Part shown: positions 2,225 to 54,098 of the stretch, piece by piece
Layout of the letters: each line of letters begins with the position of its first letter
Numbering within the stretch: the first letter of the stretch is position 1
NCBI GenBank assembly: GCA_000146465.1
Contig: CP001952.1
Reading direction: 5' to 3' (one strand)
Length of the DNA stretch: 64,000 nt
The notes under the pieces: generated by a model
The model's input: only the letters and a program-made list of their open reading frames with translations
Told to the model about the DNA's origin: nothing
Database searches by the model: none
Translations under genes and position numbers: made by a program

Positions 2225-3658
2225 CTAGTCGAGGCTCTTCAGCTCCCCCTTCAACTTATACTCCTTTAGGATTAAGTTTAATTCCTTTATAGATAATTCT
2301 TCTCCATCCTTCATCCTGTTCTTCAAACTCTCGATCTCCTTGAGAGTGTTCAACAGATCTTCCTTGCTGCTTTTCTTCGGTTTCTCATTAACTGTCTCCT
2401 CCTTCTTCTTGGGCATTCTGCTCTTGGAAGTTGTTTTTGTCATGAAGGTGTGGATGGAGGGGGGAACGTACTTCTTCTGCATCTCAATAATTAGCTTTTC
2501 GGGTTTTTCTATCTCGACAAACTCTTCCTTTTCCCCATAGGAGCAGGCCGAAAACAAAGACTCAAACTTCCTTTCGTCTATCTTTCTTCCGTAGTAGTCG
2601 TAGAGAGTTATTTTGTTATCTTCTTGGAAGTAGCTTGTTGTCGAGACACAGAAATATGATCCATTTTCCTTCCAGTCGATCAAAGATGCTCCAAGCACAT
2701 TGAACTTTGCTATAGGCTTCCTTGAAGGCACATGGAAAACCTCTATGTCTCCAGAGAGATTATCGAAGCCTGCAAACACTGCAATGTTTTCATGCTGGTT
2801 GAAGAACATTCTGTTTCTGATACCTTCTGGGAAGTTGTATCCAGGCTTGCCATCAAGCCTGTGAACAGAAACACTGCTAGGCTGAGGCCCATGGCACACT
2901 GCAAATCCATTAGAGAGAAAGACATAGGAATGGACTGGCGAATATCCAAGACTTTTGAAGGTGCATGCGGCAGTATCATGGAAATACAGGTCAGACTCGG
3001 GGAAGTAGCTGTTGTTCACATAGGATGTCATTAGAAGAAGCAGTATGTATCTGTTTGATGCATGGGCCTTCAAAGAGAAGCCTTGCAGCTCCTTTAAGCT
3101 ATGAAGAACCTCTACCGAATCTTTTCCCATCCGAAGGAGCTTGTGCATTCCATCCTTCTCAAGCTTTTTTGTGGCAAGAAAAACAAACTCTCCGGAAATA
3201 AGGAACTCTAGAATCGAAATCCTGGAAGTATGGAAAGGAGACTCCTCTATCCCATCTTCTCCGATCCGATGAATGAAAAATGATGCCCCCGATATATATG
3301 CAAGCAGGGAATTAGAAATCCTGAACTTGGATACATTCTCCACTCTCAGCATGATGCCATTCTTTCCAAGCACAACCATCTCTCCTTTTCCATTAAGTAT
3401 TCCTACGTTATTTCCGTTTTCAGACGCCTCTATTTCCCTAGGCCTATTTATCTCCATCTCCAGAATCATCTTCTTATTCTTGAGATCATAGTACCTTACT
3501 TGATTGTTCTTAGCCCATGCCACCTTGTTTGACTTCAGAGAGTAGTAATCGCACTCGACCCAGGATGCTCCTTCAGCAAACACATCAAAAGTTAGTCCAT
3601 TTTCACTATGAGCTACAATAGGCATTAGGGGCTTAAGGATGGAGACTGAATCATTCAA
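2225..3658 (-). CDS. translation initiation factor eIF2A (beta-propeller plus C-terminal coiled coil)
   Basis: HENIAVFAGFDNLSGDIEVFHV matches the eIF2A HGHILVLAGFGNLRGQMEVWDV block, and the lysine-rich coiled-coil tail (KEIESLKNRMK...LKGELKSLD) resembles the eIF2A C-terminus. Confidence 0.55.
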   Translation of the reverse strand: MNDSVSILKPLMPIVAHSENGLTFDVFAEGASWVECDYYSLKSNKVAWAKNNQVRYYDLKNKKMILEMEINRPREIEASENGNNVGILNGKGEMVVLGKNGIMLRVENVSKFRISNSLLAYISGASFFIHRIGEDGIEESPFHTSRISILEFLISGEFVFLATKKLEKDGMHKLLRMGKDSVEVLHSLKELQGFSLKAHASNRYILLLLMTSYVNNSYFPESDLYFHDTAACTFKSLGYSPVHSYVFLSNGFAVCHGPQPSSVSVHRLDGKPGYNFPEGIRNRMFFNQHENIAVFAGFDNLSGDIEVFHVPSRKPIAKFNVLGASLIDWKENGSYFCVSTTSYFQEDNKITLYDYYGRKIDERKFESLFSACSYGEKEEFVEIEKPEKLIIEMQKKYVPPSIHTFMTKTTSKSRMPKKKEETVNEKPKKSSKEDLLNTLKEIESLKNRMKDGEELSIKELNLILKEYKLKGELKSLD

Positions 3659-6376: not shown

Positions 6377-7346
6377 TGCAGTCTGCCATCTCCTTATATG
6401 TTACTCCGCTGAAGAGATACTCAAAGCAGATATTCTCTGTTTCCTCCTCTTTAGGAATTTCCTGGCACCGGGGTTCTTTGGAAATCCATCTATGCCCAGG
6501 AATTGCTAAGGATTCCTCTAAGTTTATGTATTTTCCAACTATGGCTTCCATTCCATTTCTATTGTTGGTGGCAATGAGTTGCTGAAGCTTCTTCTTTTCA
6601 GACATGAAGTCTATGAAATGAATTAGGAAGTTGAAAGAACTTTCAACCTTTAAACGTGGATTTAGAGCAATCCAAGCATCTTCATCCCTTATCCATATGC
6701 TAAATGTGGCCTCTTTATGTAGAAGGACTGGCTGGCCTTTCACATCAAAGGATTTGTTTTCCTTTTTACGGATAAGCTCTTCTATGAATAATTTAAACAC
6801 CTCAAAAGCAAGAAACGACAAGCTTCTGTCCCTGCTTCCAAAGAAGGTTATGAAGTACTCTAGATTATGAAACATTGCTGTACGGACCATAAGAACCATC
6901 TGCTTTCTAGCAAGGCTTCTTTTTTTTAGCCCAAGGAACTCCACAACCCAGTTTCTTCTGGATTTCATCAAATCAAAAAAGCTCTTGCATTCGTAATGAG
7001 GCTTGTACAGCAACTTCTGCAAGGCCAAATCAAATAAATGTAAATCCAACTTGGAGATCAGTGGGAACATGTACTCCCGCAGATATAAACTTTTAAAGTG
7101 TCTTCTAAGCAATGATTCAGGTATCTTTGGTGGTATGTCAAGACAGTAAAGGAGACGATAAGTTATGGAAAGAAGCTGGGTGTTTTTGAACATGGCCAGA
7201 GCTTTTACAAGCACCTTAGACACTTCGCAATGACTGGAGGGCTCATTCTTCAAGTAGTTTCTAAAGCAAGTAAAGAACTTCTCATAGTCTGACGGATCAG
7301 TATGATCCTCCTTAATTTCAAGGAAGTTCCTCGCCCAGTGGTCCAT
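6366..7346 (-). CDS. hypothetical protein (326 aa, no recognisable domain)
   Basis: Long uninterrupted ORF whose boundaries fit the neighbouring genes. No family recognised by eye. Confidence 0.4.
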   Translation of the reverse strand: MDHWARNFLEIKEDHTDPSDYEKFFTCFRNYLKNEPSSHCEVSKVLVKALAMFKNTQLLSITYRLLYCLDIPPKIPESLLRRHFKSLYLREYMFPLISKLDLHLFDLALQKLLYKPHYECKSFFDLMKSRRNWVVEFLGLKKRSLARKQMVLMVRTAMFHNLEYFITFFGSRDRSLSFLAFEVFKLFIEELIRKKENKSFDVKGQPVLLHKEATFSIWIRDEDAWIALNPRLKVESSFNFLIHFIDFMSEKKKLQQLIATNNRNGMEAIVGKYINLEESLAIPGHRWISKEPRCQEIPKEEETENICFEYLFSGVTYKEMADCIEI

Positions 7347-21396: not shown

Positions 21397-22561
21397 ATGG
21401 ATATCTCCGAAGAAAAGTTCGATGTACTGGATTCTGTGCATGTCTCTGGATTCCGAATATTGAAAGACAGTGGGGAGTTCTACCAAAGAATTAAGTTTCT
21501 TATGCAGAACTCGACATCAGTATGTATAGCATCCCTATTCTTTGGAAAGAACGGAGAAATGGAGGACATCATCGACATTCTCGAAGAAAGAAAGAGGAAG
21601 AATCTCATGACAATCATCTTCATCGATAAAAACAGAGGGACAGTCTTCGAAAGTCTGGAGTCTATAAAAAGAAGGGGTCTTGGCTCATTTTTTCATCTTG
21701 TAGATCTCTCTACGTCTTTCCTGCTTCCAAGGAGACTAAATGAACTTCTCAGAACCTTCCATACTAAGGCCTTGGTTTTCGATGGCCTAACCATATTATC
21801 TGGTGCAAACATGGATGCATCGTACATGACAAACAGAGTAGATAGGTAAGTGAAGCATTTTAATTTTAAGATATCTCGAGATTGACAGTAGGGAGCTGGC
21901 GGATATGATCAGATCTAGAGTCTTTGGAATAAGGCCCCCTTTGGAGGCTGGAAAAACTATATGCCAGGGCCTTCCAGTGTATGTAGGTATGTTTAAAGAG
22001 AAAGAGGAGCCTGCCATAGTCCAGTCGTTTCTGGAAGACTTCGACGAGATACACATTTCCACAGGATATCTGAACTTTCCGGCTCGCTATTTCAAAATGC
22101 TCCAAGGAAAGAAGGTGTCTCTCTATGCTTCATGCCCAGATAAGAACACCTTCGACTCGTTTGGACCCTTGGAGCGATTCATAGGCCCAGCTTATTCATA
22201 TAGCTTCTACAGAACTCTCAGATCAATTTCAAGCCTTTCCATTCACGAGCTGAAGAGGGACGGCCATTCATTCCATCTGAAAGGTAAGTGGAATTGTTAA
22301 TTTCTAGGCTTCTGGGGATTCAAGGGCAGAACAGCTGCAACCATCATAGGCTCATCAAACTTCAACAGGAGAAGCGTAGAAAGAGATGACGAAACAAATT
22401 ATCTAATAATCACATCCGACCCAGACCACGTTCAGAAGCTGAGGACTGAGGTGGAATATCTCAAGAGTAACTCAGAGGCAAGGACCTTGAAGCAGCTTAG
22501 AGGAAGGACATACCAGTTGGCCGTAATTCTATTGTTTCTGATTTTCAACAGATTCTTCTAA
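21397..22561 (+). CDS. PGS1: CDP-diacylglycerol--glycerol-3-phosphate 3-phosphatidyltransferase (PGS1-like, PLD superfamily), spliced as join(21397..21845,21871..22283,22308..22561)
   Basis: Three consecutive ORF pieces in different frames, each ending in a stop codon that lies inside a GTAAGT 5' splice site. Removing 21846..21870 and 22284..22307 gives a continuous 378-aa protein. It has HKD motif 1 (HTKALVFDG...SGANMDASYMTNRVDR|Y, compare PGS1 SGANLSxDYFTNRQDRY) and motif 2 (HLK|GFWGFKGRTAATIIGSSNFNRRSVERDDE). Confidence 0.7.
21846..21870 (+). other. spliceosomal intron (25 nt) GTAAGTGAAGCATTTTAATTTTAAG, phase 2
   Basis: The GT..AG boundaries restore the reading frame exactly (codon AG|A), and the ORF 1 stop codon TAA lies within GTAAGT. 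Confidence 0.7.
22284..22307 (+). other. spliceosomal intron (24 nt) GTAAGTGGAATTGTTAATTTCTAG, phase 1
   Basis: Splicing joins HLK to GFWGFKG...GSSNFNRRS (second HKD-like motif). The unspliced read hits a stop 5 codons later. Confidence 0.7.
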
Positions 22562-22582
22562 TCTAGTATGGCACCAAATAAA

Positions 22583-24610
22583 TCAGCATCTATCCAAATC
22601 CTTCTCAACCTTGCTGAACATGTGGTTAGCCCCCTTGAGCAGATCTTCCAGAGTCACCTCCACACAGCATCTTACAAACTCTCTCCCTGTCCTGCATAGG
22701 CTGTGGTATAAAATGTACTTTGCACGTTTTCTCGACATGCAGCTTGTGTTATGGACAAAGAACTGTGTATCGTTGAATATAGAGACATACGAGGATCCCT
22801 CGACAAGCTTTGCAACGTTCATGAAATATCCTGCACAGAACGACAGAACAATCTTACTTTCATCAGACTTGCATGGCCCATTGAACATGGAACATAGTTG
22901 CTTCTTTATCTTCACTGTCTGAAGCATTGCTCTAACATTTAGAAATGATCTCTTGAGATGTGATATCTTGAATCCAGTTCTTTCCCACATCCTATATATC
23001 TTAAGAAACGAGAAATGGTCTCCTCTTCTATCAAAATACAATGACTTTGCATCCAAAAACGCCTTGTGAGATTGGCTGTACTTTGGAATGTCCAGCCATA
23101 TGTTTCCCACACTTAGCATGGCTGCAATGATTGAAACATCCTCAAGGCACCCCAGATCCGAAGATACAATCAGGGAAATCGCTAGCTCCGGCTCTAGAGG
23201 GATTTTCGAGGCTCTGGCTCCAATCGGTGTTATCTTTCCATCTCCTCCTATGGCCTTGAGGTAGTACAGCAACTCTAGGGCCTTCCTCACATTCGAGGTA
23301 TCGGGCTTATCTATAAGGTCGAAGTTCACTATGTCATTCACTCCAATCGACTTCAGTTCAAGCACTGCCTTGGCAAGATTGCAGCAGAAAATCTCTGGTA
23401 TTGTATTCTCGCTCATCTCTTGGAATTCCTCTTTGGAGTATAACCGAAACACCTTTCCTTCCTGGGTTCTCCCTGCTCTCCCTGCCCTCTGCTTGGCCTG
23501 TGCCTTCGATATCCATGCCACCTCCAAGATGTCCATTCCAAAGGCCCCAGAGTATCTCATCTGCTTGGCTCGCCCGCAGTCCACAACATATTTTATACCC
23601 TCAATGGTTATCGATGTCTCCGCAATGTTTGTTGCAAGGACAATCTTTCTTTTCTTCGTCTTCTTGAACACAAGCTCCTGCTCCTCGGGTGAAAGCATGC
23701 TGTATATGCAATACACCTCGGCGTCGTTCCCTAAGATCTCTACAAGGATGTTTCTCCCGTTGTTGATCTCCTCCTTTCCCGTTAGAAACACCAATATGTC
23801 TCCTTCTTCCTCTGTCCTATGTATCTGTACCACTGTCTTCACAGCTTCGTCCAGATAATCCAAAGCCCCAGCCTTCTTCAAGAAAAATATCTCCAATGGA
23901 AACATTCTGTGGCGAATCTCAACCGTTTGGCATCTAAAAAACGAAATAAACTTCTCAGAGCTTAGCGTTGCACTCATTATAATCACCCGAAGATCCTTCC
24001 TCTTGCTCAGAATCGATTTCAGATATCCCAGAAGAATGTCTATGTTGACACTTCTTTCATGTGCCTCGTCGATAATCACAACATCATATCTATTGAGGCA
24101 TTTATCACTGACTATCTCCCGAAGCAAAATCCCGTCTGTAGCATATTTAAGCCTCGTTTTCTTACTCGATACATCGTTAAATCTTACAGAGTATCCAACC
24201 TCCATCCCTATCTTCACATTCATATCCTGGGCAACCTTCTTGGCAACACTTACAGCTGCAATCCTTCTGGGCTGCGTGCACACTATGCTCTTGTATCTCT
24301 CAAGAAGATATCTCGGGACTTTCGTTGTCTTCCCACATCCTGTGTCTCCTTCAATCAACAGAACTTGGCTCTTTTCAAGCTTCGAGAAAATCTCCCCCAT
24401 CTTATCTTTAACACTCTCTTCTCCAGATCTCTCCTCCTTCTTCTCCGTACTTATTAGCAAGTCCATTATTTCCTCCTCTGCTATGGAGTCCTTCTTGTCT
24501 TTGGCTAGGGGAAACAGTTCTGGAGGAATCTCTCGATTGATGCGTATTTCTGTTTCCATCCCTTTGAACACCGTTCTTTCTTCCATTCCCAATTCTCCAG
24601 GGGTCCGCAC
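22583..24610 (-). CDS. DEAH-box ATP-dependent RNA helicase (Prp43/Prp2-like)
   Basis: GDTGCGKTTKVPRYLLE (motif I), IIDEAHERS (motif II DEAH), SAT, TNIAETSITIEGIKYVVD and QRAGRAGR, with a short N-terminal extension. Confidence 0.8.
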   Translation of the reverse strand: MRTPGELGMEERTVFKGMETEIRINREIPPELFPLAKDKKDSIAEEEIMDLLISTEKKEERSGEESVKDKMGEIFSKLEKSQVLLIEGDTGCGKTTKVPRYLLERYKSIVCTQPRRIAAVSVAKKVAQDMNVKIGMEVGYSVRFNDVSSKKTRLKYATDGILLREIVSDKCLNRYDVVIIDEAHERSVNIDILLGYLKSILSKRKDLRVIIMSATLSSEKFISFFRCQTVEIRHRMFPLEIFFLKKAGALDYLDEAVKTVVQIHRTEEEGDILVFLTGKEEINNGRNILVEILGNDAEVYCIYSMLSPEEQELVFKKTKKRKIVLATNIAETSITIEGIKYVVDCGRAKQMRYSGAFGMDILEVAWISKAQAKQRAGRAGRTQEGKVFRLYSKEEFQEMSENTIPEIFCCNLAKAVLELKSIGVNDIVNFDLIDKPDTSNVRKALELLYYLKAIGGDGKITPIGARASKIPLEPELAISLIVSSDLGCLEDVSIIAAMLSVGNIWLDIPKYSQSHKAFLDAKSLYFDRRGDHFSFLKIYRMWERTGFKISHLKRSFLNVRAMLQTVKIKKQLCSMFNGPCKSDESKIVLSFCAGYFMNVAKLVEGSSYVSIFNDTQFFVHNTSCMSRKRAKYILYHSLCRTGREFVRCCVEVTLEDLLKGANHMFSKVEKDLDRC

Positions 24611-24818
24611 TTATCTTCCCTATCCCCAGAAACATATATTTTTTTTGAAAAGACCCCTTGCTTGCCTAGCCGATAAGAACGAGTCTTTTGCCTTTTACTG
24701 AAGACTCCCATGGCTAGACACCGTGCCACACAGCAATTTTTGGAATGCTGATCAACTCAGCCTTGTTGTCGTAACATCTTCATCTAGCTTCTAAGATACA
24801 TCATCAAAAAAGAATACT

Positions 24819-25787: not shown

Positions 25788-26112
25788 TTGTTTGGGAAAG
25801 GTTCTACTTAATTATAAAGAAATTAAAATGTTTTAGATTAAAACTAGATGGATGCCCAAGAGTAAGCCTCATTCAGTTGGGTAGAACCATACCTAACAGC
25901 ATTATTCTATTGCAATGATGAAAGAAATCACTTAAGATGGCCCTTTCGGCATCGTCCGAGGACTTTCCATAGAGCTCATATGTGCTCCAACGCTGTTCTT
26001 CGGACATCCATGGGCATTTCTGGAAACTCCTAAAAATATAAAATTTTTGCTTCCAGCTTCCAACCAGAGTCCAACTAAAAAAGAAGCAGTACCAACATTA
26101 TTTAAGATTAAT

Positions 26113-44268: not shown

Positions 44269-44395
44269 TTCCAAATAGACTCAAGAGTCTGGCTGGTGCA
44301 AGATAGACTATTGCCATCCGAAAAAGGTTATTGGCTTTTAGGAGAAGAAAGGGCCTGGGCCCTAAGGAGATCTAAAAATTAAGCCAACCCATAAA

Positions 44396-44937
44396 ATGAT
44401 GAGAACAACATTCAAGACTCTATGCCTTCTTCTCACCAACATCTTGTTGCTACTATCCAGCTGTGTTCTCGGAGCACTAATATCCTCAATCCCAAACTCC
44501 AAAAGCATATACAAGAATGCAAATATACAGATCACTTACATGCTCCTTCTTGCAAATGCAGGCCTTTCTCTTTTTACTTTTGTGATAGTTCAGAACCTCA
44601 ACGATGTATTTCTTCACAGGGCAAGGTCTCCAAGAGGTGTTGAGACGAAGATGAAGATCCAATGGATAATTCTCTCGATAGTGACGTTTTTTTTCGGGGT
44701 CTTCCACTTGCCACTAATTACATCCAACACAGAGAAGTTTCTCAAAATGGACATCATGGCCTTAATGACTGCCACGATCTTAGCTCTACAAGTAAGTGAA
44801 AAAGTTAATTTTAGATTGTTATGCTCTTCATTGTATACTCCATGCATCCAGACTTGTTTGGAATCAAGTATAACCGAGAGATTCGGAACTATGTGGAAAG
44901 ACTTGAAGCAGAGTCTAGTAGGGAAAACAGGATGTGA
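44396..44937 (+). CDS. hypothetical multi-pass membrane protein, probably spliced as join(44396..44791,44815..44937)
   Basis: Four hydrophobic helices. GTAAGTGAAAAAGTTAATTTTAG at 44792..44814 has the same architecture as the two PGS1 introns. The spliced reading continues with a hydrophobic helix (IVMLFIVYSMHPDLFGI). The unspliced ORF would instead run to 45007. Confidence 0.45.
44792..44814 (+). other. candidate spliceosomal intron (23 nt), phase 0
   Basis: Shares the GTAAGTG 5' end and a TTAATTT element 2-3 nt before the AG with the introns at 21846 and 22284. Confidence 0.5.
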
Positions 44938-45046
44938 CAGCAGGCTTTTACAAACAATATCCTTTAAGAATAAACTTCGTTTTACTCCTATTTACAGGAA
45001 CTTTTAGAAAGAGAAGATCCGAGGCTTTATTGGATAAACACATACT

Positions 45047-45295
45047 TTAGGTACTATGCTTCTCATCCATTTTCCTCTTTATCTTTGATAGGAAGTCACG
45101 ACACTTGAGAAGATCGCTCACCGGTAACCTGAAGGAGTTCCGGTCCATCTCTCTCATCACAGTACGTATCTTCTTTCCAATGTTCATTCTGTACTTTTCC
45201 TCTCTTACTCCAAAGTCCTCCCCACAGGTCCCTATCAATGCCATTTGGGAATTCAGTGTCATGAAGTTGTTGTGGCTCATCATGTTAAACTGCAA
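45047..45295 (-). CDS. hypothetical small protein (82 aa)
   Basis: ORF only, bounded by neighbouring genes. Confidence 0.3.
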   Translation of the reverse strand: MQFNMMSHNNFMTLNSQMALIGTCGEDFGVREEKYRMNIGKKIRTVMREMDRNSFRLPVSDLLKCRDFLSKIKRKMDEKHST

Positions 45296-45546
45296 ATAAA
45301 ACTTTTTATTTATATTTTCGTCGCAGAGATTACTGCCGTTTCCAACAAATGAAGAATATTTGTTTTAGACCAAATTAAATATTGTTTTTGGCCTTAAAAA
45401 ATTTCCAAATTAAATCTACAATCTCCCGCCATCGCAAACGTGCTATACCTGTTAATTAAACGAACTCCCACATTCCCCTCTCTAAGCAATTGGTTCTCTA
45501 TTTTTACGCATTAGAGAAAATATAATTCTCTCCATCAAAACAAAAG

Positions 45547-46407
45547 ATGTTTGCTATTTCTTTGATATTTGTGGCTCTTGCCATTGCTTACTTTGCTGTA
45601 AGACTCGGCACCACACATGAAATAAAGAATAAAAAAATTCTAGTAATCGGAGGTAGCAGCGGACTTGGCCTGGCCTTTGCTCGTGTGTTGAAAAAGGAAG
45701 GAAACAACGTCACAATAACATCAAGATCAATGGAAAGACTCGTGCCACTTGGAAAGAAATGGGGCTTTGAAACCAAGGTACTGGATATAAATGTTGTAGG
45801 CGGGCAGGAATCCACAGACTTCGACTACATATTCTGCTGTCCAGGTGTCTCATATCCTGCATACTTTGTCGACCAACCGCTTGAAACTTTTCAGGATACG
45901 ATGAGTACAAACTACCTAGGGACTGTTGCCATGCTGAAGCACTACGCAGAAGTTAACAAAAAGCCTTTTAAGTTTGTCATGATAGGATCGACACTTGTTC
46001 TACTTACATTTCCTGGGTTTTCTTCATACTCCCCAACAAAGACTGCTCTCCTTTCGCTCTTCTGTACTGTTCGTGATGAAATGGAGAGGCAAGGAGTGGA
46101 GCTCTATCTTTACAATACGGCATCCATCCTGACTCCGGGCTTTGAGAGAGAAAACAAGACAAAGCCTTCATACACAAAGGCCATTGAAGAGATGGTCCCT
46201 CCATCCTCGGCTGAGGAGAGGGCTGTAGCATTTCTGATTGGGATGAAAAAGAGAAGAATGGTGGCATCGGATGTCTTCACATACTTGTGCCAAATAAGAT
46301 TTGAATGTGAATGTCTTATCGACTACATCCTATTCCCTGTTTCTGTTGCCGTTGTATTTATTGTGCGGGCTTATGTGAAATGGAGGTTCATGGCCGAGAA
46401 AATGTAG
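45547..46407 (+). CDS. short-chain dehydrogenase/reductase, 3-ketodihydrosphingosine reductase-like
   Basis: N-terminal TM, ILVIGGSSGLGLAFARVL (NAD(P)-binding TGxxxGxG), a catalytic Y-x3-K region (SYSPTKTAL) and a C-terminal TM, as in KDSR/Tsc10. Confidence 0.55.
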   Translation: MFAISLIFVALAIAYFAVRLGTTHEIKNKKILVIGGSSGLGLAFARVLKKEGNNVTITSRSMERLVPLGKKWGFETKVLDINVVGGQESTDFDYIFCCPGVSYPAYFVDQPLETFQDTMSTNYLGTVAMLKHYAEVNKKPFKFVMIGSTLVLLTFPGFSSYSPTKTALLSLFCTVRDEMERQGVELYLYNTASILTPGFERENKTKPSYTKAIEEMVPPSSAEERAVAFLIGMKKRRMVASDVFTYLCQIRFECECLIDYILFPVSVAVVFIVRAYVKWRFMAEKM

Positions 46408-52064: not shown

Positions 52065-54098
52065 ATGGAAAGCAGAGACACTACAATAACTAGTATAGTG
52101 GCGCATATAGACCATGGAAAGACCTCACTAATGGACAGCCTTGTTGCATCCCAAGGACGCATATCAAAGGCGCTTGCCGGGTCCATAAGATTCCTCGACA
52201 CAAGGGAGGACGAGCAAGCCAGAGGAATAACTCTAAAGTTAAGCGCTATCTCCCTGGACTACGGAGGACACAGATATGTGTTCATTGACACACCAGGACA
52301 CGTCGACTTTGAGTCCTTGATCCAATCTAGTTCCATACTCTCCGATAATTTTCTTATTCTTGTAGATGTTAATGAGGGAATAACACCGAGAACTTATTCA
52401 CTTGTGAAGTATGCCAAAGGAAAGAGATGTGTTCTTGCCATAAACAAAATTGACAAGATATCTTCTCCCCAGGAGCTACTTCAAAAGACACAATCTGTGG
52501 TGACTTCGATCAACGGGCTTTCTGGTAGAGAAGTTTTTGGATGGGATGCTAATAACATCATATTGTGCTGTGCAACACTGTGCTATGGAATCAACAAAAA
52601 GATGTTCCAGAAAGTTGTTGGAAGGGATGGAAGTTTGAAGAACGCCATCGACCTTCTGTTCCATGTTTACAACAGAATAGACCAGAAAGATGTGGCCAGG
52701 ATATGCGAGAGATTCAAGGTGGCGGTCCGAAGCAGGAAGAATATTCTTTTGGCAATGCTCCCTCTATCTGAGTGTGTGTTCAATTCAATAGGAGTAGACA
52801 CCGAGGACTGTATGAAACAGTTTTATGGATCTGATCTAATAAAGCTGAATCCAATACCATCGGATAAGAAGCCTTCGCTAATGGGAGTTACTGTCTATGG
52901 AGTCCTCAAAACGCCTCGAGAGTACAGTAAGTCCTCTGTACTTTTTGTCACAAGACTGTTCTATGGGACTCTAAGGGTGGGAGACACAGTATATTCTGCC
53001 GATGGAGAAAATATCTCGGAATGTGCAGTAGAAAGCCTGTACCGGTTCGGAATAAATGAGTTGATTGAACGGGATGAGGTGTCTGGGCCGGACCTTATCT
53101 GTATTGGAGGCAGCTTTCGAAAGAACTCAGTGATAACCGATGTTCCTGCATATAGGATGGATATTCAGAGTAAGATAACACCCTTCTACAAGTTCAAGAT
53201 TGTCCTAAACAACATAGACAGGCTCGATGAACTAAAGGAGGTTTTTCGGGTGATGTCTTGTACTGAGCAGTTTCTAAAGGTGAAGCTTAATAAATACAAG
53301 GAGATAGAGGTTTCATGCACAGGGAAGGTACAGTCTGAAAAGATAATTACAGATCTTGGAGACTCTGGATTTGAATTCTCGGTTGGAGATCTTGAAGAAA
53401 AGTTTTGTGAGTATTCCACGAAGTCCTCGAGTGGAGTCTTTACCCTTGAAGATCTCAGCCTGAGGGTATGGATTTCCCAGGTATGTGGAGTAGAAGAAAG
53501 CGCTGTTCACTTCAGGAGATGGGAGGATAAGAATGGAAATCGGTTTGGTCTTGTATCTACCCTGTGCTTAGAGATGGCAACCAATGTTCTGGAGATGTTT
53601 GTTTCTAGTGGGGCGTTGATAAGAGAGAATATATACAGCACAAGATTTGTTTTAGATATACAGGGGAATGCAGATGCCATTGAACCAGACCTACTATATT
53701 CATTCTTGAAGAATTCGCTTGTTTCGGTATATCTTTCTAGTTCTCCATCTATTGCACCAACCTTCTATGAGTGTACAATATCGATCCAGGAGATGTTTAT
53801 TGGAGAGACATACAAAAGCCTACCGAAGGATAGCTATGTTGTTATCCAAGAATCCTACGAAGACAAGACCGGCTTCTACGTCCTTACAGTGCTCATTCCG
53901 CAGTTTCTGTATTCAAACTTCCTTGAGGAAATCAGAATAAGGACCAAGGGAACAGCATATCTCCTGGTGAAAGATGTAGGATACAAGTTTGGACTGGACT
54001 TCAGCAAGCAGATAGAGGGAATAAGAAAGAAAAAAGGTTTGTTTGTCGAAGAGAAGATTGTCGAGAGACCTTCCCAGCAAAGGACATATAAAAAATAG
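52065..54098 (+). CDS. EF-G/EF-2 superfamily translational-type GTPase (Snu114 or EFL1/Ria1 candidate)
   Basis: G1 AHIDHGKTSLMDSLV, G3 DTPGHVDF, G4 NKID, and domain II (LFVTRLFYGTLRVGDTVY). It is far more divergent than eEF2. The start is taken at MESRD. The ORF begins at 51912, overlapping the upstream gene. Confidence 0.6.
   Translation: MESRDTTITSIVAHIDHGKTSLMDSLVASQGRISKALAGSIRFLDTREDEQARGITLKLSAISLDYGGHRYVFIDTPGHVDFESLIQSSSILSDNFLILVDVNEGITPRTYSLVKYAKGKRCVLAINKIDKISSPQELLQKTQSVVTSINGLSGREVFGWDANNIILCCATLCYGINKKMFQKVVGRDGSLKNAIDLLFHVYNRIDQKDVARICERFKVAVRSRKNILLAMLPLSECVFNSIGVDTEDCMKQFYGSDLIKLNPIPSDKKPSLMGVTVYGVLKTPREYSKSSVLFVTRLFYGTLRVGDTVYSADGENISECAVESLYRFGINELIERDEVSGPDLICIGGSFRKNSVITDVPAYRMDIQSKITPFYKFKIVLNNIDRLDELKEVFRVMSCTEQFLKVKLNKYKEIEVSCTGKVQSEKIITDLGDSGFEFSVGDLEEKFCEYSTKSSSGVFTLEDLSLRVWISQVCGVEESAVHFRRWEDKNGNRFGLVSTLCLEMATNVLEMFVSSGALIRENIYSTRFVLDIQGNADAIEPDLLYSFLKNSLVSVYLSSSPSIAPTFYECTISIQEMFIGETYKSLPKDSYVVIQESYEDKTGFYVLTVLIPQFLYSNFLEEIRIRTKGTAYLLVKDVGYKFGLDFSKQIEGIRKKKGLFVEEKIVERPSQQRTYKK

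Follow-up and report, generated by a model that had tools for sequence, protein, structure and literature searches.

A Predicted 23-nt Intron in a Small Membrane Protein Gene of Encephalitozoon intestinalis

The 23-nt sequence GTAAGTGAAAAAGTTAATTTTAG, located at positions 44792-44814 (+ strand) of the 64,000-nt stretch of DNA analyzed here (the window), is almost certainly a spliceosomal intron (U2-type, phase 0) belonging to the class of short Encephalitozoon introns. The E. intestinalis gene that contains it is orthologous to ECU11_1060 of E. cuniculi. The assignment draws on a composite splice motif, on inserts at nine orthologous loci, and on the annotation of sister species. The motif, its positional conservation, and the selection acting on the downstream reading frame can be observed directly, and from these we infer that the intron is spliced in E. 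intestinalis, a species of microsporidia whose genome measures 2.3 Mb. P7C65_11s1g18890 of E. intestinalis shares 99% identity with the ORF at 44396-45007, which has a PTR2 transporter gene upstream and is followed downstream by a short-chain reductase gene and a gene for a Mn/Fe superoxide dismutase; this gene order is syntenic with the corresponding loci of E. cuniculi, E. hellem, and Ordospora. On the basis of this identity and these neighbors, the window is assigned to chromosome 11 of E. intestinalis.

Exon 1 (44396-44791, + strand), delimited by ORF translation and ortholog alignment, comprises 132 codons, which encode three hydrophobic segments plus the N-terminal half of the next. Its ATG at 44396 is followed by a second ATG at 44399, the one used by the GenBank models. 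A preliminary description, made from the sequence alone, had proposed a 23-nt phase 0 candidate at 44792-44814, and the sequence was found there, on the + strand and after 132 complete codons. It begins with the 5′ splice site GTAAGTG (44792-44798, + strand), which is invariant in all nine intron-bearing orthologs and in two further introns of the window (those of PGS1, described below), contains the putative branch-point element TTAATTT (44805-44811, + strand), whose core TAATTT (44806-44811) is invariant across orthologs, and ends with the 3′ splice site AG (44813-44814, + strand), which reads TAG in the window and YAG in all orthologs. Exon 2 (44815-44937, + strand) contributes 40 codons and a TGA stop at 44935-44937, completing the fourth transmembrane helix and adding a short charged tail. 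The codons for an H-P-D-L-F-G motif occupy 44845-44862 (+ strand), with H143, P144, D145, and G148 being invariant.

Removal of the 23 nt yields a product of 172 amino acids that terminates at TGA 44935-44937, as compared with 203 amino acids ending at 45007 when the sequence is left in place, in agreement with the earlier claim that splicing moves the end of the protein from 45007 to 44937. The same description had foreseen a hydrophobic helix at the new C terminus, and the last hydrophobic segment does become more hydrophobic, its hydropathy peak being 1.58 in the unspliced product and 2.44 in the spliced one. On excision, codon 132 (CAA, Gln132) is followed directly by ATT (Ile133). The unspliced reading passes into a shifted frame and acquires a 71-residue tail, which includes the peptide LLCSSLYTPCIQTCLESSITER.

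The 5′ motif of Encephalitozoon U1 snRNA is ACUUACC (Belkorchia et al. 2017, PMC5499648), the ACUUAC of which is complementary to GTAAGT, and we propose that this motif would pair with the GUAAGU of the donor, with UAAUUU, separated from the terminal AG by a single nucleotide, supplying the branch adenosine with almost no spacing to the acceptor; we infer the position of that adenosine by analogy with UACUAAC. Excision would then join Gln132 to Ile133, complete the fourth transmembrane helix, bring HPDLFG and the charged tail into frame, and allow the TGA at 44935-44937 to be reached. An unspliced message would instead be frameshifted into a non-conserved 71-residue tail running to 45007. The last codon of exon 1 (44789-44791) is CAA in E. 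intestinalis and CAG in all 8 other intron-bearing orthologs; this change may remove the pairing of a −1 G with the second C of U1 ACUUACC and may thereby make the E. intestinalis donor weaker.

Conservation of the Insert across Orthologous Loci

DNA was compared at ten orthologous loci. An insert is present at nine of them, exactly after ..CTACAG (ending CAA in E. intestinalis), and the intron-bearing set includes E. cuniculi, two E. hellem-type loci, four Encephalitozoon-like lineages, and Ordospora colligata. The insert is 23 nt long at seven loci, 25 nt at locus L006, and 26 nt at locus L007. Across all nine, only GTAAGTG, TAATTT, and the terminal AG (with T or C before it) are invariant; within the seven 23-nt inserts a single A at position 9 is also unchanged. 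The base preceding TAATTT varies among T, C, A, and G, being T in E. intestinalis, E. cuniculi, and Ordospora and C in E. hellem, and the first T of TTAATTT, which the preliminary description had counted as part of an intron code, has to be dropped from it.

Because the insert lengths differ modulo 3, the frame into which an unspliced read passes varies from species to species. The resulting tails range from 8 to 141 residues, with the E. hellem-type unspliced read stopping directly after the insert. Conservation of the unspliced C terminus among orthologs had been named beforehand as the observation that would speak against an intron, and no such conservation is seen, the tails differing in both frame and length. 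The apparent 'VS.x.NFR' conservation between unspliced products is simply the translation of the splice signals themselves.

The spliced frame behaves quite differently. It is free of stop codons over the first 33 codons in all ten species, as compared with stops in 6/10 and 7/10 species in the other two frames. Pairwise differences in exon 2 at codon positions 1, 2, and 3 amount to 0.32, 0.24, and 0.48, respectively, a pattern like that of exon 1 (0.41, 0.30, and 0.59). The spliced tail is exactly 40 residues long in 7 of the 10 species, and a conserved spliced tail of 40-49 residues is common to E. intestinalis, E. cuniculi (Q8SU40), E. hellem, and E. romaleae. Judged by these substitution patterns, exon 2 is under purifying selection in the spliced frame.

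The tenth locus, from an Encephalitozoon-like lineage (L001; Logan SRR21023573, gene at 2501-3109), lacks the insert precisely and reads from ..LLQ straight into SAKLVVIYQMHPDMFG.., which is the spliced frame. In a neighbor-joining tree of the adjacent PTR2 gene (a single gene, midpoint-rooted), L001 clusters with L007 and L008, both of which carry the intron, and Ordospora, also intron-bearing, is outermost. Since L001 is thus nested among intron-bearing lineages, the tree suggests that the intron was lost precisely in L001. The region downstream of the L001 gene contains acetyltransferase, ORMDL, and HRDC genes in place of the 76-residue gene, the reductase, and the superoxide dismutase.

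The Host Protein and Its Distant Homologs

In a Pfam search, the spliced products match DUF5090 weakly, with scores of 19.3-21.3 bits (E = 3e-4 to 1e-3) that fall below the 27-bit gathering threshold, in a match that runs to the C terminus; no DUF5090 match was obtained for the unspliced products or for the distant homologs. As this match is sub-threshold, the host protein is treated here simply as a four-helix membrane protein of ∼172 residues belonging to a microsporidia-specific family.

A profile built from database-derived spliced or intron-less orthologs was searched against 1.84 billion representatives and retrieved proteins of ∼170 residues, 17-27% identical, from Vairimorpha necatrix, V. 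apis, Pancytospora philotis, and metagenomic microsporidia. At the DNA level no intron interrupts the ORF in V. necatrix or P. philotis, and the intron-less homologs have no extra residues at the junction. A joint alignment contains only ten invariant columns, and four of these (H143, P144, D145, and G148) are encoded by exon 2 when it is read in the spliced frame, the HPD..G signature being invariant both in the Encephalitozoon/Ordospora orthologs and in the intron-less Vairimorpha and Pancytospora homologs. Consequently, E. intestinalis encodes the signature of the family only when the 23 nt are removed. Taken together, the shared position at nine orthologous loci, the intron-less L001, the frame-specific purifying selection, and HPD..G support the original proposal that this sequence is a third intron in the window.

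In V. necatrix (CP142726.1), the homolog at 601-1134 adjoins a PTR2 transporter gene at 1300-1734 in the opposite orientation, and the pairing of the small membrane protein with a peptide transporter may, from this arrangement, be conserved across distant microsporidia.

The distribution of the intron also bears on its origin. It was seen only in the Encephalitozoon/Ordospora clade, with the Vairimorpha and Pancytospora homologs being continuous at the site, and it is conceivable, if rather unlikely, that it was gained in the Encephalitozoon/Ordospora ancestor and then removed from the L001 lineage by an exact, reverse transcriptase-mediated deletion. Microsporidia are otherwise known for wholesale intron loss. 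Were this history correct, it would provide a dated gain-and-loss pair for a mid-gene, non-ribosomal intron in the smallest eukaryotic genomes.

The Composite Motif in the Window and the PGS1 Introns

GTAAGT occurs at 15 sites in the window and TTAATTT at 14, and neither is more common than in shuffled sequence. The composite GTAAGT-N(3-30)-TTAATTT-N(1-6)-AG, by comparison, was observed three times in the 64 kb, always on the + strand, against an expectation of 0.02 taken from shuffled-sequence statistics. The two other matches are the introns of PGS1, a PLD-domain phosphatidyltransferase gene that is broken into three ORFs by intron 1 (21846-21870, + strand, 25 nt) and intron 2 (22284-22307, + strand, 24 nt); a PLDc_2 domain match crosses the junction at the latter. 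When both are removed, a continuous protein of 371 residues results, identical to the annotated E. intestinalis ADM12572.1/XP_003073932.1.

The predicted intron at 44792-44814 is like the PGS1 introns in strand, in length (23-25 nt for the three), and in the GTAAGTG donor and TTAATTT element, which the preliminary description had reported as shared and which are identical in all three. Its account of the spacing proved less accurate. The gap between TTAATTT and AG is 2 nt in both PGS1 introns and 1 nt in the intron at 44792-44814, so that 1-2 nt, rather than the claimed 2-3 nt, holds in general, and the literal formula GTAAGTG-N(5-8)-TTAATTT-N(2-3)-AG matches the two PGS1 introns and not the very intron from which it had been extended. 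Neither is the code genome-specific, as had been suggested, because it corresponds to the published Encephalitozoon and microsporidian consensus (PMC2483917, PMC3486916). The three introns differ also in their annotation, those of PGS1 being already annotated in E. intestinalis ATCC 50506 and that at 44792-44814 appearing in no public E. intestinalis model found. PGS1 itself (21397-22600) is given as 292 residues in two newer E. intestinalis draft isolates (KAL7346555.1 and KAL7348492.1) versus 371 in ATCC 50506, and one PGS1 intron has probably been missed or mis-set in these two models.

A looser scan returned four additional matches. Three were rejected: 7300-7322 (+ strand) has no + strand frame open across it, 45942-46007 (− strand) is antisense to the reductase ORF that contains it (45547-46407, + strand), and 44372-44440 (− strand) overlaps in antisense the 5′ end of the gene starting at 44396 (+ strand). 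The fourth, at 52233-52293 (− strand), is 61 nt long with a non-consensus GTGTGT donor.

Two structural RNA genes were identified in the window. A U5 spliceosomal snRNA gene at 24658-24763 (+ strand; Rfam RF00020, 54.9 bits, full-length model match) sits in a short gap beside a minus-strand DEAH-box helicase ORF that starts at 24610, and its presence is consistent with an active spliceosome. The RNase MRP RNA gene at 25850-26010 (− strand; Rfam RF00030, 63.7 bits) is very compact, at ∼160 nt compared with the 266 positions of the model.

Relation to Known Microsporidian Introns

The predicted intron resembles the short-class introns of Encephalitozoon in its GT-AG ends, (GT)AAGT donor, TAAYTT hexamer near the acceptor, and the frameshift that follows if it is retained; introns of this class were reportedly also described by Katinka (2001) and Lee et al. 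(2010). GT is found at 44792-44793 as part of the (GT)AAGT donor and AG at 44813-44814, with TAATTT, an instance of TAAYTT, 1 nt before it. The 23-nt length is not a multiple of 3, its removal restores the conserved frame, and the position falls at an identical codon boundary in nine loci, annotated as spliced in three sister species.

These properties match the E. cuniculi consensus of (GT)AAGT with TAAYTT or CTAAYTT (Irimia & Roy 2008, PMC2483917) and the published intron expression GTA[AG]GT...TAATT..{0,4}AG (Heinz et al., PMC3486916). According to Grisdale et al. (2013, PMC3629993), E. cuniculi has 37 introns of 22-76 nt, a range that includes 23 nt, and all annotated introns of that species are confirmed by RNA-seq, a statement made there for the set as a whole. 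The intron is unlike the ribosomal-protein introns of the short class in that it is not 5′-biased, being located at codon 132 of 172, and in that it resides in a non-ribosomal gene; a set of non-ribosomal introns, to which the codon 132 position is akin, is attributed to Lee et al. (2010) by Whelan et al. The long microsporidian introns (Poly-A-binding/S23 family; Whelan et al. 2018) are likewise spliceosomal and kept in reduced genomes. They differ in being ∼76 nt long and ∼80% spliced and in having an internal stem-loop as well as an extended U2-pairing branch point, whereas 23 nt is too short for any internal structure to form.

In E. cuniculi, most short introns are reported to be poorly spliced (PMC3629993, PMC6349667). 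By analogy with these, the splicing efficiency in E. intestinalis is probably low, and since the E. cuniculi introns behave in this way, unspliced E. intestinalis mRNA may be abundant. It could accordingly be argued that the intron is real and that its retention is a functional state, giving rise to an alternative or truncated isoform with splicing as a regulatory switch; in E. cuniculi, splicing stays <50% for 30 of the 37 introns and <20% for 22 (Grisdale et al. 2013, PMC3629993), and short introns are spliced <20% on average (Whelan et al. 2018). We consider a functional role of retention improbable. The unspliced C termini are conserved in neither length nor frame, and in sequence no further than the overlapping spliced frame requires, L001 appears to have lost the intron outright, and the distant homologs never had the option of retaining it. 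The spliced product alone would thus be sufficient for function, given that the intron is absent from L001 and the distant homologs.

Existing Gene Models

The intron at 44792-44814 is in itself already known, being annotated in E. cuniculi, E. hellem, and E. romaleae and fitting the published consensus. Splicing at the same junction is annotated for ECU11_1060 of E. cuniculi GB-M1 (CAD26016.2, 181 residues), M970_111050 (EcunIII-L), EHEL_110940, and EROM_110930. The introns of ECU11_1060, EHEL_110940, PFJ87_11g01110, and EROM_110930 share with that of E. intestinalis the ..LQ/I.. boundary, the length of 23 nt, and the arrangement GTAAGTG...TAATTT.AG, and an exact look-up showed the predicted spliced E. 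hellem protein to be identical to GenBank PFJ87_11g01110. A full-text literature search found no mention of ECU11_1060, which is transcribed at ∼130-140 FPKM in E. cuniculi.

The sole new point, and a modest one, is that every E. intestinalis gene model found misses the intron. All three, Eint_110930 (118 residues) and GPK93_11g20600 and P7C65_11s1g18890 (202 residues each), are unspliced, and their C termini are, by the comparison above, wrong for that reason. The spliced E. intestinalis protein, whether of 172 or 171 residues, had no exact match in a collection of 15 billion sequences. The 2010 annotation of E. intestinalis included only 14 introns, which were detected manually, and the later assemblies were annotated with Prodigal, with introns added by hand, a history that explains why the intron is missing from the E. 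intestinalis models.

The three models, together with an unspliced frame that remains open for 71 codons in E. intestinalis, might be taken to mean that there is no intron and that 44396-45007 is a continuous ORF of 203 codons in which the motif arose by chance. We find this very improbable, and regard it as effectively refuted already by the comparative sequence data: the composite motif is expected only 0.02 times per window, the unspliced tails of 8-141 residues lie in differing frames and in the E. hellem-type genes stop directly after the insert, the family-invariant HPD..G comes into frame only once the 23 nt have been taken out, and the annotation history accounts for the omission. It might also be supposed that the gene is decaying and that the 23 nt are a lineage-specific insertion, a frameshift, or an error of assembly, or else that ribosomes skip them by frameshifting. 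This explanation has nothing specific in its favor other than that two frames need to be joined and can be given almost no weight, as the same insert with GT..AG and the branch motif recurs in independent assemblies of at least nine lineages, exon 2 is under purifying selection, and frameshifting would keep ∼7 codons, as opposed to the exact excision that fits intron-less homologs without extra residues.

With the spliceosomal intron as the preferred reading, the corrected E. intestinalis coding sequence is join(44396..44791,44815..44937) in window coordinates, encoding 172 residues with a complete fourth helix and HPDLFG. The practical value of this result lies in curation, the biology being ordinary in that it adds one more tiny Encephalitozoon intron. 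In addition to the three E. intestinalis models, wrong C termini are predicted for five others. Four of these are unspliced, namely E. cuniculi J0A71_01g01280 and AGE94978.1 and Ordospora M896_120950 and CWI42_120950. In the fifth, E. hellem KMI_09g14370 (KAG5859010.1; L003 2501-2867), a 19-nt 'intron', GTGGAAAAACTAATTTTAG, has been removed, for which the acceptor is correct and the donor is placed 4 nt too far 3′, and this misplacement puts exon 2 in the wrong frame. A consensus scan for GTAAGT..TAAYTT..AG, combined with cross-species conservation of frame, recovers missed introns in such genomes.

The O. colligata gene (M896_120950/CWI42_120950; L009 1501-2304) has an unspliced read of 267 residues, of which 141 are run-on, and a spliced product of 170 residues. 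The tail of M896_120950, ..RYLIFLPMFILYLSSLMPKSS.., resembles the + strand ORF at 45105-45299 of the window, which overlaps an 82-residue minus-strand ORF at 45047-45295, and the run-on seems to extend across a conserved small downstream gene on its antisense strand.
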